Shown in pieces: positions 1,481-50,815 of a stretch of DNA of 64,000 nucleotides. Below the pieces are notes generated by a model. The model saw nothing but the letters and a program-made list of their open reading frames with translations. It was not told the origin of the DNA and did not search any database. Source of the DNA: Candidatus Lloydbacteria bacterium RIFCSPHIGHO2_02_FULL_50_18 (GTDB lineage: Bacteria > Patescibacteriota > Minisyncoccia > Phycocordibacterales > UBA6899); the NCBI GenBank assembly GCA_001821395.1, contig MHLM01000004.1, forward strand, positions 32,001 to 96,000, read 5' to 3'. The first letter of the stretch is position 1, and each line of letters opens with the position of its first letter. The position numbers and the translations under genes were made by a program.

Positions 1481-1502
1481 GAATTATTTCTTTGTTCAAC
1501 AA

Positions 1503-1531
1503 AAACCAGCATGACAGTGCTGGTTTTTTAT
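1503..1531. terminator. bidirectional rho-independent terminator
   Basis: Hairpin aaaaaCCAGCAtgacagTGCTGGtttttt with A-run and T-run flanks, so it reads as a terminator on both strands. Confidence 0.6.
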
Positions 1532-1533
1532 GT

Positions 1534-1671
1534 GCGGAGGGGGCGAGATGTTCGACGCCTACTGCGTCAGTACCCGTTTCCCATTTTCTCAACATAAGAA
1601 TGTCTCGAAAATAGGGGAGAACGGCTTCGAATCTCGCACGAAAGTCGAGCAGTCGACTTTCTCTCCTCCGC
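1534..1671 (-). repeat. tRNA-3'-end mimic mini-element, instance 1
   Basis: On the minus strand it reads: GCGGAGG acceptor-like stem; hairpin AAAGTCGA-CTGC-TCGACTTT; GCGAGATTCGAA; a 77-nt insert (module B, 1549-1625); then TCTCGCCCCCTCCGCA. That last part copies the T-stem/acceptor 3' strand of the tRNA at 1710-1796 immediately upstream. Module B is about 97% identical to 45097-45171. Confidence 0.5.
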
Positions 1672-1707
1672 ATAAAAAAATCACGCTCATGCGAGCGGAT
1701 TTTTAAA

Positions 1708-1796
1708 TGCGGAGGGGGCGAGATTCGAACTCGCGGACCGTTTAACGGGTCGACAGTTTAGTAAACTGTTGATTTAAACCACTCATCCACCCCTCC
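1708..1796 (-). tRNA. type II (long variable arm), Ser-like tRNA whose canonical fold gives anticodon ACU; possibly aberrant or a pseudogene
   Basis: Manual fold: acceptor GGAGGGG/CCCCTCC, discriminator G73, D-arm GAT-GAGTGGTTTAA-ATC, anticodon stem ACAGT/ACTGT with loop TTACTAA, 17-nt variable arm, T-arm GCGAG-TTCGAAT-CTCGC. The architecture parallels tRNA-Ser(GCT) at 2392-2481. Confidence 0.55.
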
Positions 1797-1836
1797 CTGA
1801 TTCCTGTACTGTAGCATAAAATGCAGCCATGAAAGA

Positions 1837-2216
1837 GAGAGGGCGGGAATTGGTCACAAGTCATACCATCTCCAGTTAACTCTTTCTGCTCACAGAAGTT
1901 TCAAAGGTCAGTCCTTGGCCCTGCCTGCGCAGGCAGGTTTGAAAGGTCTCTCCTTGGAAACTGATTCGGAAGACCTTAACGAGAGATGGTATCACTAAGC
2001 GTATGCGGAGCAAGGCTCCTTATCCGTTAAGTGCACCACGGAGAGGGCGGGAATTTCTCGGCTTACAGCCGCAATACACCTTTGCGATTTATTCAGCATA
2101 AGAATGCTTCACAAATATCACCACGAGGAGTACTTCATTTTTCTAAGACGGAGTACCGTTAAGAAAAATTGGTCGCGCAAAGCTTTTCGAATCTCTTTGC
2201 GAGAGGGCGGATGCGG
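1837..2216 (-). repeat. array of degenerate mini-elements downstream of tRNA-Ser, each ending in a partial copy of the tRNA-Ser 3' end
   Basis: GAGAGGGCGG(GAATT) occurs at 1837-1851, 2041-2056 and 2201-2216; it is the reverse complement of the tRNA-Ser acceptor 3' strand/T-stem. An inverted copy TTCGAATCCCGCCCTCTC lies at 2329-2346. The insert next to it starts AGACGGAGGCG, as does the insert at 45256. Confidence 0.45.
2125..2178 (-). repeat. conserved intergenic hairpin repeat (family M2), copy 1
   Basis: Reads (g)AGTACTTCCATTTTTCTAAG-stem-loop-CTTAGAAAAATTGGTCGC. Two related copies lie at 34395-34449 and 35550-35600. Confidence 0.6.
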
Positions 2217-2391
2217 TCACGAGTTACTAAGCTTTTTATTTCGCTTCGCTCATAAAAATCTAAGTACTCTCGACCCCGACTCGGCTACGACCTTCGACGA
2301 GCTCAGGTCGGCTTCGCGCCTCCGTCTTTCGAATCCCGCCCTCTCGCGCAATGGCATATTAAAAAAGACCTTTCGGTCATTTTTAAGCCAT

Positions 2392-2481
2392 TGGCGGAGA
2401 GGGCGGGATTCGAACCCGCGAGGGGTTTTATCCCCTGCCACGTTAGCAGTGTGGTGCCTTCAGCCGCTCGGCCACCTCTCC
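2392..2481 (-). tRNA. tRNA-Ser(GCU), type II, with encoded CCA
   Basis: Manual fold: acceptor GGAGAGG/CCTCTCC, anticodon loop CTGCTAA (GCT), long variable arm CAGGGGATAAAACCCCTCG, T-arm GCGGG-TTCGAAT-CCCGC, G73 then CCA. Confidence 0.85.
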
Positions 2482-10771: not shown

Positions 10772-10875
10772 TTTTCGCGCCTCACTTTGTTACGGGGCCC
10801 CAGCGACTCGGTCAACATATATGAATATGTCTTCCTTGTCGCTTTCCCCGCGCCTCGTGACGCATCGAAAAATGA
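10772..10875. repeat. intergenic repeat A, copy 1 (about 93% identical to 35327-35440)
   Basis: TTTTCGCGCCTCACTTTGTT...CCCCAGCGACTCGGTCAACATATATGAATATGTCTTCCTTGTCGCTTTCCCCGCGCCTCGTGA(C/T)GCATCGAAAA. Both copies start within 15 nt after an ATPase-gene stop codon (pilT here; ftsE for copy 2). Confidence 0.8.
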
Positions 10876-11276
10876 AAGTCATGAAGGGTGTCGTTGTTCG
10901 ACGCCTCGCCCTGTATCAAAAAATAGGCCTCAGGTCTTATGTCGTGGGTCCGACAAACGTACTTTGAGTACGTCTGCTCGGACACCACTTCCTTGACGCC
11001 TCGTATTGCATCAGAAACCACGTCGAATTTGCATCTAATGCTCAACGCCTCGTGACGTATCGAAAAATGGAAGTGCTCTTGTGGCGCCTTGAGTACTGAA
11101 TTTTAGCAGTACGCTTATGGTATATCAAAAAATATTACTTCATATCGTTGATTGCTCGAATGTACTCCGAATATGTCTATCGGATATCGCCGCGTAAGGA
11201 GCCACCCTTCTTTGGTGGTTCGTTTTTATAAAGATGCTGTATAATATACTGGTCAGCTAAGTGACATCAACCACAT

Positions 11277-24713: not shown

Positions 24714-24814
24714 GAGAGATTTGATTTTGAACTGAAATATGCTATAAATTGCATACCGTCGATGTATGCAGCATACCTCGACGGTACTCGGATGAATTGG
24801 CGCTTCGCTCATTT

Positions 24815-24867
24815 TCGTGATGATGTTCATAAAAGCAAGCACGCTTTCTTTTATGAACATCATCACG
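24815..24867. terminator. long perfect hairpin (20-bp stem), probable bidirectional terminator
   Basis: TCGTGATGATGTTCATAAAAG...CTTTTATGAACATCATCACGA. Confidence 0.55.
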
Positions 24868-24902
24868 AAAGATCTGCATATTGCGCCGACTCATCATCGT
24901 TT

Positions 24903-24979
24903 GTCGACGTAGCTCAGTTGGTTAGAGCGCGGGACTCATAAGCCCGAGGTCGGAGGATCGTTCCCTCCCGTCGACACCA
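24903..24979 (+). tRNA. tRNA-Met(CAU); the anticodon stem carries three consecutive G-C pairs, so it could be the initiator
   Basis: Acceptor GTCGACG/CGTCGAC, A73, CCA encoded, anticodon loop CTCATAA, anticodon stem CGGGA/GCCCG. Confidence 0.8.
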
Positions 24980-25111
24980 TCCAATAGGCATTATCGCGTT
25001 GGTAGTGGACTATCGGTGAATAATTTGCAGTGGTAAGAAGAAAATCCTTCTTTTCACCGCGGCATTCGCAAAAAATGATAATAGATGCTATTCTCATTTT
25101 GTCGCTTATTT

Positions 25112-25185
25112 GCGGTGGTAGCTCAATTGGTTAGAGCACCCGCCTGTCACGTGGGAGGTTGCGAGTTCGAGTCTCGTCCGCCGCG
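25112..25185 (+). tRNA. tRNA-Asp(GUC)
   Basis: Acceptor GCGGTGG/CCGCCGC, anticodon loop CTGTCAC, T-arm GCGAG-TTCGAGT-CTCGT, G73; CCA not encoded. Confidence 0.85.
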
Positions 25186-25193
25186 CAAATACA

Positions 25194-25219
25194 AAAAAAC
25201 TGCTTTTGCAGTTTTTTTG
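25194..25219 (+). terminator. rho-independent terminator after tRNA-Asp
   Basis: AAAAAAACTGC-tttt-GCAGTTTTTTT. Confidence 0.7.
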
Positions 25220-25234
25220 TGTTTGCACGGTGGA

Positions 25235-25392
25235 GGAAGCATCTGCATGCTTCCGACGAGACTCGAACTCGCCATCACCATGATGAGTACTTCCAATTTC
25301 ATACTCTCTGTAGTCGTTGAAATTTAGGTCGCTCCATAAAGCCTGCGATGACGATCTCGAATAAGCTTCGCTTCTCGTCCGTCCCGTAAATA
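25235..25392 (+). repeat. tRNA-3'-end mimic mini-element, instance 3 (downstream of tRNA-Asp)
   Basis: Hairpin GGAAGCAT-CTGC-ATGCTTCC; GACGAGACTCGAA, the inverted copy of the tRNA-Asp T-loop/T-stem; a ~105-nt insert ending ACGATCTCGAATA; then TCTCGTCCGTCCCGTAAATAC, an 85% copy of the last 21 nt of tRNA-Asp including the downstream AAATAC. Confidence 0.5.
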
Positions 25393-25415
25393 CAAAAAGT
25401 ACCTAAAGGTACTTT

Positions 25416-25484
25416 TTGTTCTTGTTGCGGGACCTGGAATCGAACCAGGGCCTTCAGGTTATGAGCCTGACGAGGTACCGCTCC
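25416..25484 (-). tRNA. tRNA-Met(CAU) elongator type, or tRNA-Ile2 if lysidinylated
   Basis: Acceptor GCGGGAT, anticodon stem TCAGG/CCTGA with loop CTCATAA, T-arm CCTGG-TTCGATT-CCAGG; 69 nt, followed by a hairpin/T-run terminator at 25390-25412. Confidence 0.75.
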
Positions 25485-26432: not shown

Positions 26433-26500
26433 ATAGTGTGCCGCCTTAGCTCAGTTGGCAAAAGAAAGTCAGACAGCTCACTCGTTACGAGTGTTGAGGA
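26433..26500 (+). pseudogene. pseudo-tRNA: 5' part plus anticodon-arm-like copy of tRNA-Thr(CGU), lacking a T-arm
   Basis: The 26-nt ATAGTGTGCCGCCTTAGCTCAGTTGG is identical to 26529-26554. CAGCTCACTCGTTACGAG matches the CATCTCACTCGTAACGAG anticodon arm of the real tRNA. No T-arm or acceptor 3' strand follows. Confidence 0.55.
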
Positions 26501-26610: not shown

Positions 26611-26746
26611 AGTAAATAGTTTCGCTCAGTTGGTAAGCCAAGTCCGCAAAGCCAGACACTGGGTTGGCTTTTTCGTAGCAGTGTCGCCCACCGGCGACGC
26701 ACCACACAACTCGTCTTCTCCGCTACGCTGCGAAAACGATCTCGAA

Positions 26747-26800
26747 TAGAGCATCTCACTCGTAACGAGAAGGTCCGCAGTTCGATCCTGCGAGGCGGCT
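26747..26800 (+). repeat. direct duplicate of the 3' 54 nt of tRNA-Thr(CGU), an attR-like scar
   Basis: AGAGCATCTCACTCGTAACGAGAAGGTCCGCAGTTCGATCCTGCGAGGCGGCTCT is identical to 26557-26609 except the terminal CT versus CCA. It is preceded by ACGATCTCGAAT, the same module end seen at 25356. Confidence 0.8.
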
Positions 26801-26923
26801 CTAGAAAAAGAACGTAGTATTTTTTTGTCCGCCTCAAGAAAATAACTGCTTGTTTTCTGGCAGGATCGAATAGCGAAGCTAAAAAGCCGCGCATATGCGC
26901 GGCTTTGTGTACTCACTCATTTC

Positions 26924-34375: not shown

Positions 34376-34394
34376 AGCTCTCCTCGGCACCACG

Positions 34395-34449
34395 GAGAGT
34401 ACTTCCATTTTTCTAAGTGGATGACCACTAAGAAAAATTGGTCGCTCGG
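34395..34449 (-). repeat. hairpin repeat family M2, copy 2
   Basis: GAGAGTACTTCCATTTTTCTAAGTGG-atga-CCACTAAGAAAAATTGGTCGCTCGG. Confidence 0.6.
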
Positions 34450-35326: not shown

Positions 35327-35440
35327 ATTTTCGCGCCTCACTTTGTTGTAAGGCAGCGCACTTATGCCCCAGCGACTCGGTCAACATATATGAATATGTC
35401 TTCCTTGTCGCTTTCCCCGCGCCTCGTGATGCATCGAAAA
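35327..35440. repeat. intergenic repeat A, copy 2
   Basis: About 93% identical to 10772-10875; begins 2 nt after the ftsE stop. Confidence 0.8.
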
Positions 35441-35549: not shown

Positions 35550-35600
35550 GTGACCAATTTTTCTCAGCGGTACTCCGCTTTAGAAAAATGAAATGCCCTC
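35550..35600 (+). repeat. hairpin repeat family M2, copy 3
   Basis: GTGACCAATTTTTCTCAGCGG-tact-CCGCTTTAGAAAAATGAAATGCC. It is directly preceded by GCGCCTCGTGATG, a member of the GCCTCGT motif family. Confidence 0.6.
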
Positions 35601-39234: not shown

Positions 39235-41130
39235 ATGATTCAAGAGACCGCTCTTACTATTATGAAAACGGGGGCGAATGTATTCCTCACGGGGGAGCCC
39301 GGGAGCGGTAAAACGCATACCGTAAACGCATATATCCGCTACCTCCGCGAGCACAACGTCAATCCTTCGATCACTGCTTCAACGGGTATCGCCGCGACGC
39401 ACGTCGGCGGGATGACCATTCATTCATGGAGCGGTATCGGCATCAAGCGTGCGCTCACCGAATATGACCTCGATGCGCTGTCCTCGAACGAAGGACTTGT
39501 GAAGCGTATCGCCAATGCAAAGGTGCTTATCATCGATGAGATATCGATGCTCGACGGCAACACGCTGGTCATGGTGGAGGCGGTCACGCGAACGCTTCGT
39601 CGCAAGCACGAGCCTTTCGGCGGACTGCAGATAATTTTCGTCGGCGATTTCTTTCAGCTGCCTCCCATCGCGGACCGGGCAAGCGGTGTTCGTGCGCAGT
39701 TTTGTTTCGAATCAACAGCATGGCGAGTGGCGAATCCCATAGTGTGCTATCTCTCCGAGCAGCACCGTCAGGAAGACACCGCGTTTCTCTCTACGCTTGG
39801 CGCCATTCGCCGCGGAGAGCTCGAGGATAGCGTCTTTGAATATATCGGCGAGAGGCACGTGCTCCCAGGTGAGCATCCACACGACATTCCGCAGCTCTAT
39901 ACGCACAACATTGATGTCGACAAAAAGAATACGGAAGAGCTCGCAAAACTTGAAACGGAAGAAAAGGTCTTTCTCATGAGCACGAAGGGGACGAGCAATC
40001 GCGTGGAGCAGCTGATCAAGGGCTGTCTTTCACCCGAGGAACTGGTGTTGAAAGAAGGCGCATCGGTGATGTTCACCAAAAATAATTTTGAAAACGGCTA
40101 TGTGAACGGCACATTGGGGACGGTGGTGGGATTCGACGAGGACAATGGTTTTCCAATTGTTGAAACATCGGGCGGAGAAAATATTACCGCGCTTCCTTCC
40201 GAATGGGCCGTTGATGATTCTGGGAAAGTGCTCGCCACCATCACTCAGGTACCGCTCCGACTCGCGTGGGCTATTACCGTGCACAAGAGCCAGGGGATGA
40301 GCCTTGATGCCGCGACGATGGATCTCTCGCGCGCATTTGAATACGGGCAAGGGTATGTGGCACTCTCTCGTGTACGCGCATTCTCGGGATTGCACATCCT
40401 CGGCATCAATCAGCGCGCATTCGAGGTGCACCCTCTTGTGCTTGAGCGCGACCTCGCGTTTCACGAGCGTTCGGATGAAGCGGAGGCGGGGTTTCTCGAC
40501 ATGTCGGACGCCGACCTCCGGAAGTTACACGAGAACTTTTTACTCGCCATTGGAGGGAATCTGGCGAAAAAAGAAATCATTGCCAAGGCATTCGGTGTTC
40601 CAAAACTGAGTACGTATGAAGAAACGCTCGCGCTCCTCAGCCCCGGGATGACGCTCGCCGCGATTGCCAAGCGTCGGGACGTGACCGAGGGGACGATCGT
40701 GGGCCATATCGAAGAACTCGCGCTACTCGGAAAGCTCCCGTCGATAGACATCGCCGCCTTTGCCGAGCTTCCTGCGTCGGTGGTGAAGGAGATAACGCAA
40801 ACGATCGAGACGATCGGAGGAGAATTTCTCAAGCCGCTCTACCTTGAATTGGATGAACGTTATTCTTATGAAACGATCCGTCTTGTTCGATTCGGAGCGG
40901 GCATTGCTCCGAAGCAAAAAGACGCCGTCGTTGCGAAAAAAGAAAAGGTAAAAAAGGTGTCACATGAAAAACCCGCAAAGCTCGGAGCGAAGTGGGGAAA
41001 GGAAGAGGAAGAACGACTCACAAAAATGTTCAAAGAGGGAAAGAAGACGAAGGACATCGCACAGACACTTGAACGGCAGTCGGGGGGTATCCGTGCTCGT
41101 TTGAAGAAGCTGGGGCTGATAAAAAAATAG
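39235..41130 (+). CDS. Pif1-family (RecD-like SF1B) ATP-dependent DNA helicase with a C-terminal HTH-like tail
   Basis: Walker A GEPGSGKTH, the Pif1 signature ITASTGIAATHVGGMTIHSWSGIG, Walker B LIIDEISM, FQLPPI and AITVHKSQGMSLD; the C-terminal region is basic with an HTH_40-like shape. Confidence 0.8.
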   Translation: MIQETALTIMKTGANVFLTGEPGSGKTHTVNAYIRYLREHNVNPSITASTGIAATHVGGMTIHSWSGIGIKRALTEYDLDALSSNEGLVKRIANAKVLIIDEISMLDGNTLVMVEAVTRTLRRKHEPFGGLQIIFVGDFFQLPPIADRASGVRAQFCFESTAWRVANPIVCYLSEQHRQEDTAFLSTLGAIRRGELEDSVFEYIGERHVLPGEHPHDIPQLYTHNIDVDKKNTEELAKLETEEKVFLMSTKGTSNRVEQLIKGCLSPEELVLKEGASVMFTKNNFENGYVNGTLGTVVGFDEDNGFPIVETSGGENITALPSEWAVDDSGKVLATITQVPLRLAWAITVHKSQGMSLDAATMDLSRAFEYGQGYVALSRVRAFSGLHILGINQRAFEVHPLVLERDLAFHERSDEAEAGFLDMSDADLRKLHENFLLAIGGNLAKKEIIAKAFGVPKLSTYEETLALLSPGMTLAAIAKRRDVTEGTIVGHIEELALLGKLPSIDIAAFAELPASVVKEITQTIETIGGEFLKPLYLELDERYSYETIRLVRFGAGIAPKQKDAVVAKKEKVKKVSHEKPAKLGAKWGKEEEERLTKMFKEGKKTKDIAQTLERQSGGIRARLKKLGLIKK

Positions 41131-41186
41131 ACAAAAATTTGAAAGCGAGAGGTATTTGACAAGTGCGATAAACTACTGCAGGATTG
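41073..41186 (+). repeat. direct repeat L (helicase 3' end plus a promoter-like 34-mer)
   Basis: About 90% identical to 42906-43018. The 34-nt core GGTATTTGACAAGTGCGATAAACTACTGCAGGAT is 100% identical in both copies and contains TTGACA. Confidence 0.8.
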
Positions 41187-42905: not shown

Positions 42906-43018
42906 TGAACGCCAGTCGGGAGGTATTCGCTCTCGTTTGAAAAAGCTGGGGCTGATAAAAAAAAGACATACATTTGAAGGCAAGGAGGTATTTGACAAGT
43001 GCGATAAACTACTGCAGG
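42906..43018 (+). repeat. direct repeat R, including an in-frame pseudo-fragment of the helicase C-terminus
   Basis: Would encode NERQSGGIRSRLKKLGLIKK against LERQSGGIRARLKKLGLIKK in the helicase. Four of five nucleotide differences in that stretch are synonymous. The 34-nt promoter-like core is identical. Confidence 0.8.
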
Positions 43019-43063
43019 ATGAAACAAGATCGTTTTCTTTGACGAAACTCTAAGGAGTCTGTG

Positions 43064-44841: not shown

Positions 44842-44941
44842 GATGATCTCATTATAATCCCATGATGACTTGAAAAATAGGGCGAATTGGCTATACTGAG
44901 CCGACTGTTCTAAGACGGTTTTGTTTTAGGCTTTATATCAT

Positions 44942-45014
44942 TGCGGGTTCGTCTAATGGTAGGACATCGCCCTCTGGAGGCGAGTATTGGGGTTCGAGTC
45001 CCTGACCCGCAGCA
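44942..45014 (+). tRNA. tRNA-Gln(CUG)
   Basis: U1-A72 acceptor (TGCGGGT/ACCCGCA), anticodon stem TCGCC/GGCGA with loop CTCTGGA, T-arm TGGGG-TTCGAGT-CCCTG, G73. Followed by hairpin GAAAACACCCC-ttttaat-GGGGGTGTTTTC. Confidence 0.85.
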
Positions 45015-45051
45015 AATGAAAACACCCCTTTTAATGGGGGTGTTTTCATTT

Positions 45052-45189
45052 GCGAGGAGAGGAAGCCATCTGCATGGCTTCCGGCAGGGACTCGAAGCCG
45101 TTCTCCCATATTTTCGAGACATTCTTATGTTGAGAAAATAGGAAACGGGTACTGACGCAGTAGGCGTCGAGATTCCCTGACCCGCAGCA
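45052..45189 (+). repeat. tRNA-3'-end mimic mini-element, instance 2 (downstream of tRNA-Gln), carrying module B
   Basis: Hairpin GGAAGCCAT-CTGC-ATGGCTTCC; CAGGGACTCGAA, the inverted copy of the tRNA-Gln T-loop/T-stem; module B at 45097-45171, about 97% identical to 1549-1625 in the opposite orientation; then ATTCCCTGACCCGCAGCA, the tRNA-Gln T-stem/acceptor 3' strand. Confidence 0.55.
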
Positions 45190-45234
45190 GCCGCACAAAA
45201 CCACTCTGTATGGAGTGGTTTTGTTTTGCGGTTG

Positions 45235-45442
45235 CTCGCGGGTCAGGGACTCGAAAGACGGAGGCGGTCTACGCCGCCACTTTCCTAAGTGCGGTGTCGC
45301 CGAGCGACATTGTTTTCTTATGAGTAAGCGAGTTAGAAAACAAGAAGTACTCTTGTGGTGCCGGGGTCGAGAGCACTTAGGCTTTTGGCTGCCTTGCGCC
45401 AAAATATTTAGTGACTCGTGATCAAGTTTGACCCGTAGACAT
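45235..45442 (+). repeat. second tRNA-Gln-derived mini-element with a different insert (module C)
   Basis: CTCGCGGGTCAGGGACTCGAA (inverted copy); an insert starting AGACGGAGGCG, as at 2217-2326 in reverse complement; a degenerate terminal copy TTTGACCCGTAGACA. Preceded by a long hairpin at 45175-45232 built from the tRNA-Gln 3' end and its complement. Confidence 0.4.
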
Positions 45443-45826: not shown

Positions 45827-46040
45827 AGACAAAACCCTCCTCGTGAACAAACCGCCATAAATAGTACACCAGTAGCTTTGAGAGTCAAGAATGATCAGAA
45901 AATGTAGCAAGTGCACCTAGTGCTCTTCGTATCAGATATATCGACACCAAGTCATCCGACCAAGGTGGGCTTGACTGACCACGGTTTTATCTAGGGTCGG
46001 CCAGCTTTTAAAAACAGAAAAGCGGTATAATTCAGAGTAT

Positions 46041-46394
46041 ATGAATATTTCTAAGAAAAAATTTGTTGCCCTCTTCCTCATTTCTGCGTTTGCCTTTCAA
46101 TTCATCTCCAACTCACTTTTTGGGTCAGACGTTCGACTCTTTCCTCAGAAAGGGGAGTCTTTGTTGGGGACGGATCCACAAATAGGCTGGAAGAGTGCCG
46201 GATACAAAATTCAATTGCCTATCAAAATTGTTTTGATGGGACCCATGCTGCTTTCTACTGATTTTTTGCGAGATGATCCACCACCTCCATTTGTTGCCGC
46301 TGTATTTGCTCTCTACTGGTCGATCCTTGCCTTATTTATTTACTATCTTATCGGTATTATAAGTAGAAGACATCCTCTATGTGTTTCTGCTTGA
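46041..46394 (+). CDS. hypothetical membrane/secreted protein
   Basis: 117 aa with N- and C-terminal hydrophobic segments. Confidence 0.35.
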
Positions 46395-46548
46395 GTGCTT
46401 GGGTAATTTTGTGAGCAAGGAGGAGAGATGGGTTATATCTGTTTTGTTCAAGCGAAATAATTGTTTGTCTGGTTACTCCTGCAAGTTCAGCAAGTTTTTC
46501 TTGCGTAAGGTTTAATTTATTTCGATAAAGAGCAATGTTTGTTTCCAT
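46357..46548 (-). CDS. XRE-family HTH transcriptional regulator
   Basis: 63 aa, [35 protein letters not shown]: a classic Cro/C1-type HTH. Confidence 0.8.
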
Positions 46549-46550
46549 TT

Positions 46551-46979
46551 TTAATTTTTCTTATCTAAATAGAAATTTGAAGCGGCTTTAACGATAGTAC
46601 CAACGATGAGAGCTAATAAGATCACCGGATCAACTCTCGTGATCTCGTTTACAACAATGCCTGCGGCAATCTGATAACCGATGCCTGCGGTGAGCACTAC
46701 TAAGATAGCCCAAAGGGCATTTCGCTCAGAGATCGCTTCGTGTATTATATCCCGCTCGTCTTTCGGCACATGAACCATCATAGCTATGAAATCGATACCA
46801 AAAACGATCGCCCACAATGAGAGCAATACTACTTGCGTTGACCCAATGACATTCATTTCAGTTATGACAATTATCGGCAGTATCATAACGACAATATATG
46901 CCCAGCCTTGCCAAGTAGAAGGTGTCAGCCCCCAGCCCGTATACTTTCTTCTTTTGAACCACTCCGGTTTTGCGATCAT
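46551..46979 (-). CDS. DUF2975-like multi-TM membrane protein (usual partner of small XRE regulators)
   Basis: Four TM helices. Its start follows 3 nt after the XRE gene stop; the start was chosen at MIAKPEWF (the ORF is open to 47036). Confidence 0.45.
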
Positions 46980-47278
46980 ATAATTATGTTTATTACTAAT
47001 GTAATATATACTATACGTAAAATATATATTACACAAGCGCTATTGCGGATAACTTGCATTACGGGTAAAAGTTTCACTGCGGATATTGAATGCTAAGTCA
47101 GGAGATCGTTTTGGGCGGTCTTCCGGGGTGCCTCTTCGTGAGACCCTGAAAGGTAGTTTGTAGGGCAATGCGTCGTCTTCACTCCATCTTTTTCGCCTCT
47201 AATATTTATGCTTCTTCTAACTTAAATAGGTTCCAGTTTGTTCCTGACGCGCAGTATTTTTTTTGGTATGCTCATTTT

Positions 47279-47605
47279 ATGAAGATAGTAAATCCAAGAG
47301 TCGTCCCTGATGTAGCTCAAAAATATATCATCGCCAAGATTTTCAATAGCGATGAACTTCTGCTTTGGGGCGATCCAGAAATCGAATGGCATAAGGACAT
47401 TGCAGAAGAAATGGGTGACGCAGGCCTCGTTGTTGAATGGGTAAGGGGAGGAGGAAGATTGAAATTCGTGACTGATTCGAAAACTATTTATGTCTGGGGT
47501 AAAAGTAGTATGTATGGAGCCGCGTCATTTCGGGAAGCGAAGAACATTTTGAGGATCGCTTATTCTGACTATGACATTCTTAATGAGATCCCTCCAGAAG
47601 AATAG
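47279..47605 (+). CDS. hypothetical protein
   Basis: ORF open from 47168, with the start chosen at MKIVNPR; no known motifs. Confidence 0.35.
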   Translation: MKIVNPRVVPDVAQKYIIAKIFNSDELLLWGDPEIEWHKDIAEEMGDAGLVVEWVRGGGRLKFVTDSKTIYVWGKSSMYGAASFREAKNILRIAYSDYDILNEIPPEE

Positions 47606-47684
47606 TTCCAACGTCGTCCCCTGCATCTAATTTGATAAATGCGCTAATCTTGCTGATTGGCATTTTTTAAAGCCAATGTCTGTT

Positions 47685-47990
47685 TTATGAAAAATCTCGT
47701 TTCCCTTCCCAGGGGATACCCCCGTAGTCCAATAATAGTTCTTCACCAGATCGAATATCTCTTGAGGAGATAAAATAAAATTTATCTCCATTTTGTAACA
47801 GCCCTATGTTGGGATCTTGTGAATGATTTATTTTCTCTCCGAGGCTCGTTCTCGCATAATCCACATCAGGATTTCCCGTGGTGCTAATTCTTTTGAATCC
47901 TAACCCGATATTCTCACCGCAGACGATATTATCTCTAGTGAAAACTCCATGCCCCGCAATATTTGATCCCTTTATTTCGAGGTTGACCAT
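47685..47990 (-). CDS. minimal SET-domain protein (putative protein-lysine methyltransferase)
   Basis: 101 aa with NHSQDPN (SET NHSC(D/N)PN motif) and a C-terminal GEELLLDYG (SET ELxFDY motif). Confidence 0.6.
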   Translation of the reverse strand: MVNLEIKGSNIAGHGVFTRDNIVCGENIGLGFKRISTTGNPDVDYARTSLGEKINHSQDPNIGLLQNGDKFYFISSRDIRSGEELLLDYGGIPWEGKRDFS

Positions 47991-48020
47991 TGCTTTGATT
48001 ATAGCTTTTTGTTAATTTCC

Positions 48021-48506
48021 TCATCGTCTCCATCCCGCATCATCGAATCGTGCGCCATCTCCGTTGAGGTATTTTTGCATCATTTCCTTTGCTGGCCCTC
48101 GGCGCACCCATGCATCATTGACTCCCGTCATGTCGACAAGAATACCTGCAGTGATGATTGCAACAATGAATCCCGCGATGATGATCTTGAAATCTATCTT
48201 GTAGGAAAAATCATAGCGTCGGAGCAACCATATTCCGAGAACGAGTCCGAGTATCGCAAATACGGGCGCCCACCACGGGAAACTCGAAAGAAATTGCTCA
48301 AGGCGATATTCTCCCATTGGTCCGTGCGACCGAGAAAGAAAACGCAGTAATCCAAAAAGGAAAACTGAGACAACTATTGAAGAGACCAACCCCAAGAAGG
48401 TGAGTAGTGATCCGAGAATAAAGTATATCTTTGGGCGGGGTTTTATCTGCTCACCATGGATCTTTCCCATGATGGTGTCGGTGATGTTGTTTAATTCTTT
48501 TGACAT
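48021..48506 (-). CDS. membrane protein, putative anti-sigma factor
   Basis: Immediately downstream of, and overlapping, the ECF sigma gene; N-terminal cytoplasmic segment followed by four TM helices. Confidence 0.4.
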   Translation of the reverse strand: MSKELNNITDTIMGKIHGEQIKPRPKIYFILGSLLTFLGLVSSIVVSVFLFGLLRFLSRSHGPMGEYRLEQFLSSFPWWAPVFAILGLVLGIWLLRRYDFSYKIDFKIIIAGFIVAIITAGILVDMTGVNDAWVRRGPAKEMMQKYLNGDGARFDDAGWRR

Positions 48507-49033
48507 AAGTGTTTCATTAAGGCTTTTGCGCGACTTACGCGCGTCGCAACGGTACCCATTGGTATGCGCAGGATGTCGCTGATCTCTGCATACGACTTCT
48601 CTTCTATATAATACAACGTGAGCGGTTCAGCGTAGAGGAGGGGTATCTGTTCGAGGCACTTCGTCACCATCTCCACTGTTTCTTTTTGCTCGAATTCCTT
48701 TTCGATGTCTTCATCACTTACAAAATCCGCAGTATCCAAGAGAGGGACTTCACTCGGATATTTTTTGATGATGTTGAGTGCCACATTATGTGCAATACGA
48801 TATATCCAGCTCGAAAATTTCTTTTTTACGTCAAAACCGTTGAGATTGATGTACGCGTTAATGAAGGCTTCCTGGACGACGTCGGTCGCCATGTGTTCAT
48901 CCTTGATGAGGTGAGTGACGTAGCGGAGTAGTTTGTGTTGATATCGCTCAATGAGTATAGCGTAAAGATCCCGATCAGTTGATCGAACTTTTTCAACTAT
49001 TGCTTCATCTGAAAGTTTTTCGTTCTCGTCCAT
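48491..49033 (-). CDS. ECF-type RNA polymerase sigma-70 factor
   Basis: Region 2 (YRIAHNVALNIIKK) and region 4 HTH (YAEISDILRIPMGTVATRVSRAKALM); 180 aa. Confidence 0.8.
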   Translation of the reverse strand: MDENEKLSDEAIVEKVRSTDRDLYAILIERYQHKLLRYVTHLIKDEHMATDVVQEAFINAYINLNGFDVKKKFSSWIYRIAHNVALNIIKKYPSEVPLLDTADFVSDEDIEKEFEQKETVEMVTKCLEQIPLLYAEPLTLYYIEEKSYAEISDILRIPMGTVATRVSRAKALMKHLCQKN

Positions 49034-49120
49034 ATAAAAATTCTACTCAGTATTATTGATCATGTACACTAAATCCCCGATCGTGACTCGGGGTAGTGTG
49101 CTTGGGGGTTGTGCTTTTGC

Positions 49121-49492
49121 TTAACGATTCATGTGCCTGCCCATCCCTTTTCCTCGTCCTTCTCCACCTCCAACACCGAGGCCAAGTTCTTGGCGGATCT
49201 TTTGTGCTTCAGCGATCTTTCCTTGCTCTGCCAATTCATGAGCCTCAGCAAATTTTGCAAAGTTCCCCTGATTGATGACTTCCGTTGCTCGTCCTCGTCC
49301 TTGCATCAGCTCTTTCCATGCATTGTAATCCTTCTGCTCAAATACCTTCTCCATTGCCTCATGGCGCTCTGTGCTGTAGTTTGGACCTTTAACGCTAGGG
49401 TCTCCTCTATATGCAAGCGCAGCGCTCGCGGATACCCCGAGTCCTCCAAGGACAAGTGCTGCAACTCCTAAGCCGAATAGTTTTTTGTTCAT
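49121..49492 (-). CDS. small secreted Lys/Glu-rich protein
   Basis: Signal peptide MNKKLFGLGVAALVLGGLGVSASAALA followed by a helical charged region and a G-rich tail. Confidence 0.45.
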   Translation of the reverse strand: MNKKLFGLGVAALVLGGLGVSASAALAYRGDPSVKGPNYSTERHEAMEKVFEQKDYNAWKELMQGRGRATEVINQGNFAKFAEAHELAEQGKIAEAQKIRQELGLGVGGGEGRGKGMGRHMNR

Positions 49493-49741
49493 ATGTGTTT
49501 CTCTTTAGATCAATGATTAATTTCAACCCCCTCCACTATTAATACAAGCTCAGGGAGTATTTTCTTTCATCGGTGAAAATTGCCCGAATTTCAACGTTTA
49601 TTCTCGGTCTTTACGATGGTCTTTTCCGTTGCGAGGGAGGAATGACCCGTGTGAGCTACGATCAGCGGATCGAATGACGCCTGTTGACAGTCGTTGTCTT
49701 CTTTTGACACACTTACTGAGTGAGAAGCAGGTAAAGAAATC

Positions 49742-50815
49742 ATGCATAAAGGGTACAAGCCGATAAAATTCCCGGAAGATGAATCAATCCACGATTATAT
49801 CGTTGAGTGGTGGTATTTTAACGGCCACCTGAAAGATGCAGATGGCAATGAATATCCTTTTATGGACTGTCTGTTCAAGGTGGATATGAAGAAGGTGAAA
49901 AGACCTTTTTTGAGTCGGCTGCGGATCAAAACAGCCTACTTCTCTCATTTCTCTCTTTCGGACCTAACGAATAAAAGTTTTAATCAGCGGATAGCTCCTC
50001 TTTCGCTTGTTTCCGACGATAGCTTTTCTAAACCGCTCCTCTACATTAGTTATATCAATCCCACCGTCAAAAATAGTTACACGAACTGTGTCATTGAAAA
50101 AATAGGTGAGTCAGTTTATCATCTAAAAAATGAGGACATTGATCTCCAGTTAACGTCAGTGAAGGAGCCGCTGCTCGAAGGGGGAAACGGATTTCTCGAT
50201 TTCCATTCTCGGACAACCTATTATTACTCCTTAACGAATCTCAGAACGGTAGGAAAAATAAAGGTCAATGACAAATGGATAACTGTTACCGGCAAGTCCT
50301 GGATGGATCACCAATGGGCGGATGCGAGTTATTCCGTGAATAGGTGGGATTGGTTCTCGGTGCAATTCGATGATGATACGGAAATGGTCTGCTGTGTATA
50401 TGACGATGGCAAGGTCAAGACTTTTTTTGCCGACATTTCGTATCCGGATGGTACAGAGGGGCATTACACTGAGATCGAGATCATTCCTTTGGATAAGCAT
50501 TGGACAAGTCCAAAAAGCAAGGCGGTCTATCCAGTCTCATGGAGCATTACGATACCGGAAAAAAACATAGAGGTGAATCTGACTGCAGTGATCGAAGGTC
50601 AGGAAATGCTTTTTGGGTCAATTAATTATTGGGAGGGTCCGCTTAAGGTGGAGGGTTCATTCGGGGATAAGAGGGTAATCGGTGTCGGCTTCATGGAATT
50701 GGTCGGCTATCCATCAGAGTACAGTAATGTGAGATATCTCAAGGATGAGATCGGTAAGGTCGCAAGTTGGTTTATGTTAGCAATAAGGAAAAGGGCCCCC
50801 ACCCGTGGCTCGTAG
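49742..50815 (+). CDS. CrtC/AttH-like (hydroxyneurosporene synthase-like, lipocalin-fold) protein
   Basis: N-terminal FPEDESIHDYIVEWWYFNGHL matches the P..H...EWWY.TG.L signature of the CrtC/AttH family. Confidence 0.55.
   Translation: MHKGYKPIKFPEDESIHDYIVEWWYFNGHLKDADGNEYPFMDCLFKVDMKKVKRPFLSRLRIKTAYFSHFSLSDLTNKSFNQRIAPLSLVSDDSFSKPLLYISYINPTVKNSYTNCVIEKIGESVYHLKNEDIDLQLTSVKEPLLEGGNGFLDFHSRTTYYYSLTNLRTVGKIKVNDKWITVTGKSWMDHQWADASYSVNRWDWFSVQFDDDTEMVCCVYDDGKVKTFFADISYPDGTEGHYTEIEIIPLDKHWTSPKSKAVYPVSWSITIPEKNIEVNLTAVIEGQEMLFGSINYWEGPLKVEGSFGDKRVIGVGFMELVGYPSEYSNVRYLKDEIGKVASWFMLAIRKRAPTRGS

Follow-up and report, generated by a model that had tools for sequence, protein, structure and literature searches.

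Non-coding modules carrying inverted copies of tRNA gene ends in Patescibacteria: possible tRNA-anchored, non-autonomous DNA elements

The DNA analysed here, referred to below as the window, is a 64,000-nt stretch of contig MHLM01000004.1 from a Candidatus Lloydbacteria MAG (GCA_001821395.1). Non-coding modules of approximately 140-210 bases lie 3' of the tRNA genes in this ultra-small CPR/Patescibacteria host, and all tRNA transcription-unit ends in the window share one module syntax (Table 1). The order of parts from the tRNA outwards is a trailer palindrome, a Watson-Crick complement of the tRNA acceptor-3' strand, a hairpin of 7-12 bp in which CTGC is a frequent loop, and a complement of the T-stem 3' strand and T-loop (...TCGAA). 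A palindromic core that is conserved comes next, and the tRNA 3' end, copied directly but only in part, closes the module. The inverted arm repeats the tRNA gene from T54 to the discriminator in inverted orientation, with exact Watson-Crick complementarity, and extends through the trailer; the tRNA 3' end, the terminator and the inverted arm form a single palindrome of 35-50 bp, which the conserved hairpin splits at the acceptor/T-stem junction. A few conserved palindromic core types occur, with one core 3' of each arm followed by the partial direct copy. Viewed against REP/REPIN sequences, each core is a constant palindrome bearing a GTAC/GTA signature, yet the arms are locus-specific. By inspection, the junction sequences read ...TCGAA and ...GTCGA. 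The sequence features quoted in the initial annotation of this DNA are all present, at or a few bases from where it had placed them.

Table 1. Positions of the tRNA genes and module features in the window
Feature	Position	Strand	Parts	Match or remark
Second terminator-like hairpin, closing the Ser(ACT) module	1500-1529	-		
Type-A module Ser(ACT)	1533-1673	-	acceptor complement 1661-1673; CTGC hairpin 1641-1660; T-stem 3' strand plus T-loop complement 1626-1639; core 1552-1625; direct copy of tRNA 3' end 1533-1549 (17/17)	covariance model 119 bits, E=1.6e-30 (1533-1672); fold z=-5.8
Trailer palindrome / terminator-like hairpin between tRNA-Ser(ACT) and inverted arm	1674-1704	-		
tRNA-Ser, anchor of module A-Ser	1709-1796	-		ARAGORN, anticodon ACT
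Three-unit array 3' of tRNA-Ser(GCT)	1835-2384	-	trailer hairpin 2361-2384; continuous inverted arm 2328-2349	
Ser(GCT) unit 1		-	type-B core 2213-2327; direct copy D1 2198-2212	
Ser(GCT) unit 2		-	T arm 2186-2196; end of A-like core 2056-2080; D2 2039-2054	model R1 at 2037-2164, E=3e-6
Ser(GCT) unit 3	1851-2038	-	D3 1835-1850	
tRNA-Ser(GCT), anchor of the array	2392-2481	-		
tRNA-Asp(GTC), anchor	25112-25186	+		
Asp module	25186-25393	+	trailer palindrome 25186-25225; acceptor complement 25226-25234; CTGC hairpin 25235-25254; T complement 25255-25267 (18/18 inverted match to tRNA-Asp); divergent core 25268-25372; direct copy 25373-25393, including AAATAC	weak R1 match 25224-25305; homologous hairpin in relative L006
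Second tRNA-Thr(CGT) copy	26624-26803	+		degenerate 5' strand; outside module family
Minimal module of tRNA-Thr(CGT)	26827-26903	+	acceptor complement 26827-26835; CTGC hairpin 26836-26858; T complement 26859-26870; GCGAAGC mini-hairpin; terminator 26881-26903; no core, no direct copy	covariance model E=0.05
tRNA-Gln(CTG), anchor	44942-45013	+		promoter-like site 44870-44897
Type-A module Gln-1	45012-45189	+	trailer palindrome 45012-45053; acceptor complement 45049-45061; CTGC hairpin 45062-45081; T complement 45084-45096; core 45097-45170; direct copy 45174-45189 (16/16)	covariance model 125 bits, E=4e-32 (45050-45189); fold z=-4.9
Type-B module Gln-2	45190-45441	+	palindrome 45190-45235; continuous 18-nt inverted arm 45238-45255 (18/18 to tRNA-Gln); core B 45256-45423; degenerate direct copy 45427-45441	Rfam-scan long-hairpin matches 45153-45257

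The Ser(ACT) and Gln-1 modules have a common 79-nt core with 97.5% identity and differing arms. The modules of the window had initially been taken to be of one type, but Gln-2 and the first Ser(GCT) module carry a type-B core, in which the inverted arm is continuous and has no hairpin. The segment from 26613 to 26800, originally listed as a further instance, proved to be a second tRNA-Thr(CGT) copy with a D-loop insert of approximately 107 nt and a final 55 nt identical to the gene; the true module-type arm lies at 26827-26870 and consists of an acceptor complement, a CTGC hairpin and GGCAGGATCGAA. A low-GC accessory region is found 3' of the Gln modules. When the modules were folded, a check suggested at the outset, the structures matched the prediction, with z scores of -4.9 to -7.5 relative to shuffled sequences. 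Pairing of the arm with the tRNA acceptor-3' strand in a single extended hairpin is seen for 50 of 62 modules (dG -30 to -53 kcal/mol). In the folds, the core, or a three-way junction, takes the place of the T-loop.

Metagenomes were scanned using one 22-nt core motif as the query, and at least 126 matches were obtained. Of the 126 matches listed, 79 are downstream of a tRNA on the same strand. Among the tRNA-linked matches listed, 69 of 79 are located no more than 200 nt from the tRNA, the core motif is on the tRNA strand in 79 of 79, and about 20 tRNA specificities, or nearly all, are represented. The genomes of these matches span 36-52% GC, and over this range the 22-nt junction motif hardly varies. 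A covariance model trained on metagenomic module copies was then run on the window, giving the two strongest scores of Table 1. Over all loci, an inverted T part was present within 220 nt downstream of 107 of 189 tRNAs, compared to 11 in the upstream control, and both inverted parts were present downstream of 54 of the 189 and upstream of 0. The covariance-model scores and these downstream/upstream counts indicate that the association of modules with tRNAs is not due to chance. Within a less biased subset, occupancy was partial, an arm being present at just 31 of 82 terminal tRNAs.

In the Rfam comparison only tRNAs reached the gathering threshold, and E-value scans of the module regions gave just hairpin-like chance matches. 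Searching a viral collection with the motif produced a single chance match, within coding DNA. A literature search found no description of such tRNA-linked elements, and tRNA sites are unmentioned in a paper on gene exchange in Patescibacteria. The proposal made from the window, of a non-coding family that is regular in build and anchored on the T-arms and 3' ends of tRNAs, was borne out. The family has no Rfam match, is widespread and is apparently undescribed to date.

A terminator-like hairpin with a T-run precedes 46 of 62 modules, and no promoter-like sites were found ahead of modules. Together with the partial occupancy, these features indicate that modules are not obligatory for tRNA expression. 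Some modules (L067, L087) must be transcribed, since they are situated between co-oriented tRNA genes with no terminator.

The inverted arm follows the tRNA gene closely. Wherever the direct copy differs from the real tRNA, the inverted arm matches the tRNA, at 36 positions against 0 that match the direct copy, and the direct copy is often truncated and decays without compensation, so that a 'tRNA-3'-end mimic' with conserved pairing between inverted and direct copies, as first suggested, does not describe these modules. Nor is tRNA identity reproduced: at non-Watson-Crick (G.U) positions of the acceptor stem, including G3.U70 of tRNA-Ala, the arm complements the 3' strand and never copies the 5' strand (20:0). 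T-loop variants are also complemented in the arm, TTCAAAT as ATTTGAA and TGCGATT as AATCGCA, and the Asp arm, when the window is compared to L006, co-varies with a species-specific T-stem change next to a clearly homologous hairpin. Mismatches were counted at 47 of 1136 arm positions (7 G.T, 9 A.C and 31 others), with no wobble bias. Across the three conserved stems 96.3% of cells pair, double changes are seen in 17 of 19 pairs, G.U occurs in 2 of 587 cells, and there are no one-sided changes. Such strong, strictly Watson-Crick covariation is a caution for RNA-motif discovery, as it is not on its own proof of an RNA. Of 68 modules, 53 gave a better fold for the tRNA-sense than for the antisense strand (p=3e-9). 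The terminator, one conserved T.G pair and the closing stems account for this asymmetry, and the variable stems do not, since they favour neither strand (38 vs 40); for that reason the advantage of the sense strand does not decide between RNA and DNA.

Several observations bear on the turnover of the modules. Between strains that are 99% identical, a 127-nt unit flanked by a 16-nt T-arm repeat is present in one and absent in the other, although this polymorphism could represent a deletion instead of an insertion. When loci were compared in pairs to find filled and empty sites, L040/L084 was the one informative case and the other differences were unrelated indels; the same-strain contigs L001-L005 showed no polymorphism. 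Neither empty sites nor free forms or circular junctions were observed. Tandem arrays of modules were observed, with a 95-nt direct repeat in L088, and different tRNA loci have exchanged cores. Five related species differ in both the types and the order of cores at their orthologous tRNA-Asp locus, and this genome carries the Met-Asp block in the opposite orientation to that of its relatives. In one case (L028) a normal 2-kb island extends from tRNA-Glu to a displaced tRNA 3' fragment and is followed by a module, and in another (L127) small accessory ORFs alternate with modules 3' of tRNA-Asn, an array of this kind being seen once. The strain difference, the tandem arrays, the long direct repeat and the core common to two tRNAs give the propagation of the modules a recombination-generated look, as had been suspected. 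No integrase or transposase family was found among the 25 most frequent families of the 150 ORFs within 3 kb of modules, and no recombinase was found among the window ORFs tested.

The modules were compared to known systems that use or resemble tRNA sequences. Like tRNA-integrating islands, prophages and CIME-type elements, they target the 3' part of a tRNA from the T-loop onwards, leave the gene intact, place a displaced direct copy downstream and accrete in tandem at one tRNA; the direct repeat of the tRNA 3' segment expected of an att scar is exact over 16-17 nt in the window and reaches the full length noted above in L088. However, they measure 140-210 bp and not kilobases, and they possess an inverted copy of the tRNA end, a fixed hairpin, a shared core and locus-specific arms. 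Integron attC sites and CTX-phage attP(+) are likewise imperfect palindromes, of about 60-150 nt, in which the folded single strand provides a duplex recombination site; extrahelical features lie on one strand, arrays build up beside a fixed site, and the CTX hairpin imitates its chromosomal target. The modules differ in having no intI/attI or dif/Xer context and no R''/R' boxes (RYYYAAC/GTTRRRY), and in a hairpin that copies the end of a tRNA gene, and any activity of theirs as a folded single strand is putative.

REP/BIME/REPIN, Correia, BOX and ERIC sequences are also short, structured, extragenic palindromes that follow genes and terminators, and they share with the modules a mosaic build, many copies per genome, strictly paired stems and an association with assembly breaks. 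Their own sequence is fixed, whereas two arm segments of each module are templated from the adjacent tRNA. REP/REPIN palindromes are mobilised by a genomic RAYT (Y1 transposase) gene. A classical MITE, which had been one of the initial candidates, does not fit because the arms vary by locus and there is neither a fixed terminal repeat nor a target-site duplication. Among tRNA-like RNAs (the tmRNA domain, YrlA, viral TLS and mascRNA) the likeness consists of stacked acceptor-like and T-like helices with a hairpin replacing the D and anticodon arms; in the modules, by contrast, a three-way junction replaces the T-loop, pairing of the 5' strand extends to the discriminator and trailer, A-U stands in for G.U identity pairs, and the 3' strand is often truncated. 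Retroviral and LTR primer-binding sites similarly complement the 3' end of a specific tRNA as far as the T-loop, but the modules include no CCA complement unless it is genome-encoded, are interrupted by a hairpin and have no reverse transcriptase, and their complementarity enters the genomic trailer, meaning that the gene was copied and not the mature tRNA.

Five candidates were rejected. A by-eye comparison of the junction with the hammerhead core and other small ribozymes failed since the arrangement of CUGA and GAA is wrong and is gone in a second variant of the motif. An aminoacylatable minihelix or tRNA identity mimic is incompatible with the replacement of G3.U70 by A-U and the decay of the 3' strand, and a mature-tRNA primer-binding site with complementarity that follows the genomic trailer instead of a CCA end. 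A T-box-type cis-regulatory leader would need co-oriented downstream genes, which are absent. Frequent inversion of the core between arms, as in Xer 'dif modules', does not agree with the constant strand of the motif among the tRNA-linked matches listed.

Taken as a whole, the modules behave more like small recombining DNA elements than like tRNA-mimicking RNAs, and we give about an even chance to the reading that the family consists of non-autonomous, tRNA-anchored palindromic DNA elements of Patescibacteria. Counted against such DNA elements are the tRNA-sense fold advantage, the modules without terminators between co-oriented tRNAs, the lack of an integrase or transposase family in the neighbouring and window ORFs surveyed, a motif that does not occur in viral contigs, and the failure to observe empty sites, free forms or circular junctions. 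The near-invariant junction motif, and the many compensatory changes by which the hairpin and stem 1 stay paired, also count against them, since they imply selection on a folded single strand, to which a purely passive repeat would not be subject. The modules are possibly functional RNAs instead: genes or transcribed spacers for a structured RNA, made with the tRNA by read-through or in polycistronic precursors, with a three-way junction containing conserved GGUACUGACCCUGUAAGGGUCGA and a 5' arm that is antisense to the tRNA 3' third. Conceivable roles of such an RNA lie in the processing or quality control of tRNA 3' ends, for instance by sequestering the 3' third of read-through precursors or by generating sites for RNase P, RNase Z or RNase III. 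The low fold z scores, the covariation of three helices, a junction motif invariant in diverse genomes, the fixed orientation and distance relative to the tRNA, the better folding of the sense strand and the modules that must be transcribed all speak for an RNA. We nonetheless consider it unlikely, as G.U pairs are nearly absent and one-sided changes lacking, which is unusual in an RNA helix under selection, neither strand is favoured in the variable stems, and most modules follow a terminator-like hairpin and T-run with no promoter-like site. Partial occupancy, uncompensated decay of the 3' closing strand and the lack of matching Rfam families point the same way, and a cis-regulatory role is improbable given that downstream genes are not co-oriented.

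Two explanations based on DNA were also weighed. The initial annotation had raised an attR-type scar, and attL/attR remnants of ordinary integrase-mediated island or prophage insertions and deletions at tRNA genes would account for direct repeats of the tRNA 3' end downstream of the gene, the 2-kb island of L028, the alternating ORFs of L127 and the low-GC region after the window Gln modules. Random deletion remnants, however, would not yield a common 80-nt core at different tRNAs or a syntax conserved over about 20 tRNA types and many genomes; integrase att sites do not include an inverted tRNA end that bears a hairpin at a constant place, and integrase families are not enriched among the 150 neighbouring ORFs. 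A simple scar of an integrase-borne island is accordingly very improbable. Alternatively, the host may keep the structure, either as an extended bidirectional terminator or insulator or as a palindrome that protects the 3' third of a single-copy tRNA gene by conversion, in which case the cores would be passengers. This would agree with an arm that tracks its tRNA over evolutionary time, with the terminator always lying inside the palindrome, and with the arm at each tRNA unit end of the window, including the core-less tRNA-Thr version. Against it, occupancy in other genomes is partial, the conservation of hairpin and cores is left unexplained, protection would be limited to the tRNA 3' third, and a long palindrome over an essential gene would more probably harm than help, making host maintenance quite unlikely. 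In the reading as DNA elements, a putative benefit to the host, be it as insulator or terminator or as a template for conversion of a single-copy tRNA gene, would come second.

If the modules are DNA elements, they would be maintained by arm-to-arm templating together with recombination at the T-loop. Intrastrand template switching, or gene conversion of quasi-palindromes, may hold the inverted arm to the tRNA sequence, with the selected tRNA serving as the master copy; template switching has been reported to correct imperfect inverted repeats preferentially to perfect ones (PMC5941160). The direct copy would then be a decaying by-product of insertion or duplication. Colonisation of new tRNA loci, at which the element would acquire arms for the new tRNA, might proceed through microhomology provided by the near-universal, partly palindromic T-loop box GGTTCGAATCC. 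It might otherwise involve a putative recombinase supplied in trans, acting on a folded single strand at the T-loop TCGA, with the hairpin of tRNA end, trailer and inverted arm presenting a duplex copy of the target as in integron attC and CTX-phage attP. A bolder proposal, which we put forward tentatively and hold to be unlikely, is a mobile element of a new kind, one that has no fixed target specificity and copies it from the target itself. Its conserved scaffold, a hairpin and palindromic core, would lie between two arm segments, each rewritten at the landing site from the tRNA gene there. The folded single strand would be a duplex replica of the 3' end of that gene and would be recombined at the T-loop by a putative trans-acting enzyme, and that enzyme would be widespread in Patescibacteria. 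An RNA version of the same proposal, a family of tRNA-specific antisense RNAs with one per tRNA, is possible.

Patescibacteria make up a large share of bacterial diversity and have tiny genomes in which tRNA genes are mostly single-copy. A dense element family at many of these genes, conserved yet turning over rapidly, is an unreported feature of their genome architecture. Contig ends are frequent at module loci, and assemblies break at tRNA loci because these elements are there. As inverted repeats, the modules are able to invert tRNA blocks, and they create hot spots adjacent to tRNAs where small accessory genes accumulate. If it is true that the arms are rewritten from the target, these modules would be a natural example of site specificity that reprograms itself.

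The window is part of a bacterial chromosome of the CPR/Patescibacteria, Parcubacteria group. A 206-aa methyltransferase whose gene lies between two of the tRNA loci matches a protein of a 'Candidatus Lloydbacteria bacterium RIFCSPHIGHO2_01_FULL' MAG at 100% identity, and identical contigs are found in several groundwater metagenomes. Eight tRNA genes were called concordantly by ARAGORN and Rfam: Ser(ACT) and Ser(GCT), both on the minus strand, Met, Asp, a second Met on the minus strand, Thr(GGT), Thr(CGT) and Gln. As the initial annotation had claimed, non-coding modules of regular syntax lie 3' of tRNA-Ser(ACT), tRNA-Asp and tRNA-Gln. Read in the tRNA sense, each begins with an A/T-rich trailer palindrome, followed by 9-13 nt complementary to the acceptor-3' strand, a hairpin of 8-9 bp with a CTGC loop and a locus-specific stem sequence, 13 nt complementary to the T-stem 3' strand and T-loop with TCGAA at the 3' end, a structured insert (the core), and a copy of the tRNA 3' end. 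The exact inverted repeats are 18/18 at both Asp and Gln, and the exact direct repeats are 16-17 nt at Gln and Ser.

Cores are exchanged between tRNA loci. The inserts of the Ser(ACT) and Gln-1 modules (core type A) are 97.5% identical over 79 nt with unrelated arms, and type B (TCGAAAGACGGAGGCG ... GGGGTCGAGAGYACTTAG ... TTAGTRACTCGTGAYC) is common to Gln-2 and the first of three successive units 3' of tRNA-Ser(GCT), the inverted arm of both type-B units being continuous and without a hairpin. At Thr(CGT) an arm and CTGC hairpin are present with no core or direct copy 3' of them, and the minus-strand tRNA-Met is convergent on the Asp module, which the two genes share; an inverted arm is therefore found at every tRNA transcription-unit end in the window, which bears out the claim that all its tRNA loci carry modules. 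The region 26613-26800, also put forward as a module, is instead a second tRNA-Thr(CGT) copy with a D-loop insert. Folding with RNA parameters reproduced the expected closing stem, hairpin and T-like stem (z = -4.9 to -7.5), together with a three-way junction from which a long, variably tipped stem and a 7-bp mini-stem closed by a GUA loop emerge. Comparison of the modules with Rfam gave no family match.

Coordinates of modules and other features in the window and in related contigs
Feature	Location	Strand	Remarks
Ser(ACT) module	1533-1673	-	core type A
tRNA-Ser(ACT)	1709-1796	-	type II, A34
Ser(GCT) array	1835-2384	-	three units
Met-Asp tRNA pair with module	24903-25423		inverted in some relatives
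Palindrome	24813-24870		58 nt
Asp module	25186-25393	+	
tRNA-Thr(CGT) 5' fragment	26433-26458		upstream of gene
tRNA-Thr(CGT) second copy	26624-26803		downstream of gene; D-loop insert of ~107 nt
Thr(CGT) arm and CTGC hairpin	26827-26870		
Gln-1 module	45012-45189	+	core type A
Gln-2 module	45190-45441	+	core type B
Dispersed short repeats	2119-2176; 34388-34445		intergenic, away from tRNAs
Dispersed short repeat	35552-35592	-	intergenic, away from tRNAs
Dispersed short repeats	10797-10871; 35366-35440		intergenic, away from tRNAs
Dispersed short repeats	10851-10879; 11046-11074		intergenic, away from tRNAs
115-nt repeat	41070-41184; 42906-43020		90% identity
Low-GC stretch	46000-50000		GC 0.41-0.45 against ~0.50
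Cassette regions in L027	3380-3540; 4380-4980		compared with L070
Cassette regions in L070	1560-2110; 2950-3090		compared with L027
tRNA-Met without module, L018	4576-4720		
tRNA-Met without module, L023	2294-2800		

Several other features of the window were observed. A34 is unusual among bacteria outside tRNA-Arg; the type-II tRNA-Ser(ACT) lies beside a normal tRNA-Ser(GCT), and since the ACT anticodon was also called in the metagenomic relatives L097 and L100, it is probably not an error. The Met-Asp pair and its module are inverted relative to three related species, L006, L009 and L012 (Asp, Met and Met all on the opposite strand), with breakpoints at module or palindrome sequences including the 58-nt palindrome; L017 and L020 share the orientation of the window. 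The insert of the downstream tRNA-Thr(CGT) copy is apparently flanked by a TA duplication, and its 3' end, ACGATCTCGAATA, resembles the end of the Asp module core. The dispersed repeats include a hairpin element (CACCACGRRGAGTACTTC...TTGGTCGC) and a separate 75-nt repeat of 98.7% identity, and some contain sub-motifs of module cores, a hint that the genome's repertoire of mosaic repeats is wider. One copy of the 115-nt repeat overlaps a 631-aa ORF at its 3' end and extends into the intergenic DNA that follows, and the other is intergenic, 5' of an SbmA/BacA-like gene. Small accessory genes occupy the low-GC stretch directly 3' of the tRNA-Gln modules, with products that include a SET-domain protein, an ECF-type sigma factor and a Janus/Ocnus-like protein; the stretch yielded no recombinase and may be an old island.

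The relation of the arms to the tRNA was examined by aligning three sequences: the end of the tRNA itself (D0), its direct copy further downstream (D1) and the reverse-complemented inverted arm (I). I agreed with D0 at a mean of 18.8 of 24 positions and D1 at 14 of 24, the direct copy being decayed and frequently shortened to the T-stem strand. Where D1 departs from D0, I matched D0 at 36 positions and D1 at none. At non-Watson-Crick acceptor positions, including Ala G3.U70, I was the complement of the 3' strand in 20 cases and a copy of the 5' strand in none; these acceptor counts were relied on, as those at the T-stem are inflated by register errors. Uncommon T-loop variants are likewise complemented in the arm, and complementarity extends past the discriminator into the trailer, so that a single hairpin of -30 to -53 kcal/mol unites tRNA 3' strand, trailer hairpin and arm in 50 of 62 modules. 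The Asp hairpins of the window (GGAAGCAT-CTGC-ATGCTTCC) and L006 (GGAAGCAC-TTAC-GTGCTTCC) are clearly homologous, and their T arms differ exactly as the T-stems of the two tRNAs do, indicating that the arm tracks its tRNA through time. In essence, then, the arm is templated on the end of the real tRNA gene and copies it in inverted orientation. The initial proposal that the two arms pair with each other to mimic a tRNA was not supported, given the 36:0 agreement of I with D0 and the degraded state of D1.

Relatives were recovered by the conserved synteny ligA-gatC-gatA-hypothetical-tRNAs-methyltransferase, and every one carried modules 3' of tRNA-Asp, with core types and order varying (A followed by B in L006, a variant of A in L009, B leading in L012, and in L017 a third type ahead of A). 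A scan of metagenome contigs with the mini-stem motif GTACYGWCSCNGTARGSGWMGA, a set biased to that one motif, gave at least 126 matches at at least 119 loci. Among the matches listed, 79 had a same-strand tRNA upstream; 69 of these (68 unique) were no more than 200 nt away from it, the usual distance from the tRNA end being 100-150 nt. Anchors among the matches listed were tRNAs for Arg, Ala, Gly, Val, Pro, Lys, Ile, Ser, Met, Leu, Trp, Asn, Gln, Glu and Asp, and one with a TTA anticodon; approximately 14 matches were chance occurrences in high-GC coding DNA, and the remainder were mostly modules too, at contig edges or as later array units. Module-bearing loci ranged from 36% to 52% GC, one 36%-GC contig belonging to another Paceibacterota/Parcubacteria lineage, and no modules were found in the viral collection scanned. 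A covariance model of 31 copies recovered two copies in the window (125 and 119 bits), the second Ser(GCT) unit (E=3e-6) and copies at loci of nine relatives. The consensus order is tRNA, trailer palindrome, complement of the acceptor-3' strand and discriminator, and hairpin (often AGCAAG-n4-loop-n4-CTTGCG, stems of 7-12 bp, CTGC loop in 16 of 58). The hairpin is followed by the sequence complementary to the T-stem 3' strand and T-loop, then by stem 1 and stem 1' enclosing a variable hairpin, and by GGTACTGACCCTGTAAGGGTCGA. Either 0-3 nt or one more small hairpin comes next, and last a repeat of the T-stem 3' strand, to which the acceptor 3' strand may or may not be attached. The TTA-anticodon tRNA, in metagenome contig L073 (Ga0172379_10055532), adjoins tRNA-Leu(TAG), has its own module and was called 'Stop' by ARAGORN; an ochre suppressor is one possibility, a wrongly called Leu-type tRNA another. 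The tRNA-Met of L018 and L023 lacks a module, and in one of the two strains an additional 366 nt lies within what, by eye only, resembles a decaying homing-endonuclease-type ORF immediately 3' of the tRNA.

Units are gained or lost between close relatives. L040 and L084 are 99% identical, yet L084 has an extra 127-nt unit (type-B core, T-stem copy and T arm), on either side of which 16 nt of the T arm are directly repeated. The tRNA and A module recur in a third strain, L082, which has no B unit. The B units of L040 and L084 lie inside D1 at the T-stem/acceptor junction, the position that the hairpin occupies on the inverted arm. Tandem duplication was seen in L088 (1.6 units, a 95-nt direct repeat, the terminator-loop centre flipped from G to C between copies), and tandem arrays in L071, L078 and L090; 3' of tRNA-Asn in L127, modules alternate with a 273-aa nucleotidyltransferase-like ORF and an 85-aa ORF, the third module being followed by more small ORFs. 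By a strict 9-mer match on sequence fragments, the inverted T part followed 31 of 82 terminal and 5 of 30 internal tRNAs in a less biased set outside the scan-motif selection, so that occupancy is substantial, not universal. Two small cassettes, each of promoter-like sequence, a short ORF and a terminator, with a duplicated terminator hairpin at both flanks, are present or absent between contigs L027 and L070 (~93% identity), the hairpin loop being flipped (GTGA vs TCAC); recombination in these genomes seems generally to concentrate at terminator hairpins.

The best-supported reading, to which we give about an even chance, is that the modules are a family of non-autonomous palindromic DNA elements anchored at tRNA gene 3' ends. 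The three conserved helices had 96.3% of cells paired, double changes at 17 of 19 pairs, no one-sided changes and G.U in 2 of 587 cells, with a covariation score of 0.71 against 0.17 in shuffles and at most 0.12 in slid registers; wobble bias was absent among 47 arm mismatches. The palindromes are read as kept by arm-to-arm copying, a DNA-level process, and selection would act on a folded single strand, either ssDNA or RNA. A co-transcribed structured RNA is rather unlikely. Folding energy favoured the tRNA-sense strand in 53 of 68 modules, as did G.U pairs in the predicted structures (224 vs 134); this asymmetry is absent from the variable stems (38 vs 40) and arises in the terminator, in the closing stems and at a single conserved T.G pair. 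In the window, as in 46 of 62 cases, T-run terminator-like hairpins separate tRNA from module, and no promoter-like site was found 5' of the modules. GCGAAGC mini-hairpins, exceptionally stable when DNA, are repeated among the cores; a few modules lie between co-oriented tRNAs without a terminator and so must be transcribed, and these, with a 22-nt junction motif showing almost no variation, count against a pure DNA reading.

A DNA structure kept for the host is less probable than a structured RNA, and that the modules are plain integrase scars is very doubtful. They resemble tRNA-integrating islands in target and direct repeats, attC and CTX attP in folded palindrome and array logic, and REP/BIME in extragenic mosaic palindrome style. 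They fail defining tests of the islands and of attC, as well as those of tRNA-like RNAs, all Rfam families and MITEs, so the MITE-like reading first suggested is not upheld; they lack the dif/Xer context of CTX attP, and their locus-specific arms set them apart from REP/BIME. No recombinase family was among the 25 most frequent in 150 ORFs within 3 kb of modules; the top families were HD domains, SpoU methylases, CCA-adding enzymes and translation GTPases, probably reflecting conserved synteny. Conserved synteny with particular tRNAs is probably also why genes for CCA-adding enzymes (4-5), SpoU methylases (5) and excisionase-type HTH_17 proteins (4) recurred among these ORFs (alignment A3).

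For the anchored palindromic elements, arm perfection would be upheld by template switching or gene conversion between palindrome arms, which is documented for bacterial inverted repeats (PMC5941160). Perfect direct copies would be lost or counter-selected because they promote deletion. New tRNAs might be reached via the universal T-loop box as microhomology, or via a trans-acting recombinase that, by analogy with attC and CTX attP, would act on a folded strand imitating the tRNA gene end. A literature search found no description of such elements. The modules are classified as a kind of small non-autonomous repeat or integrative element, unusual in having arms that copy the adjoining tRNA and so differ from locus to locus.
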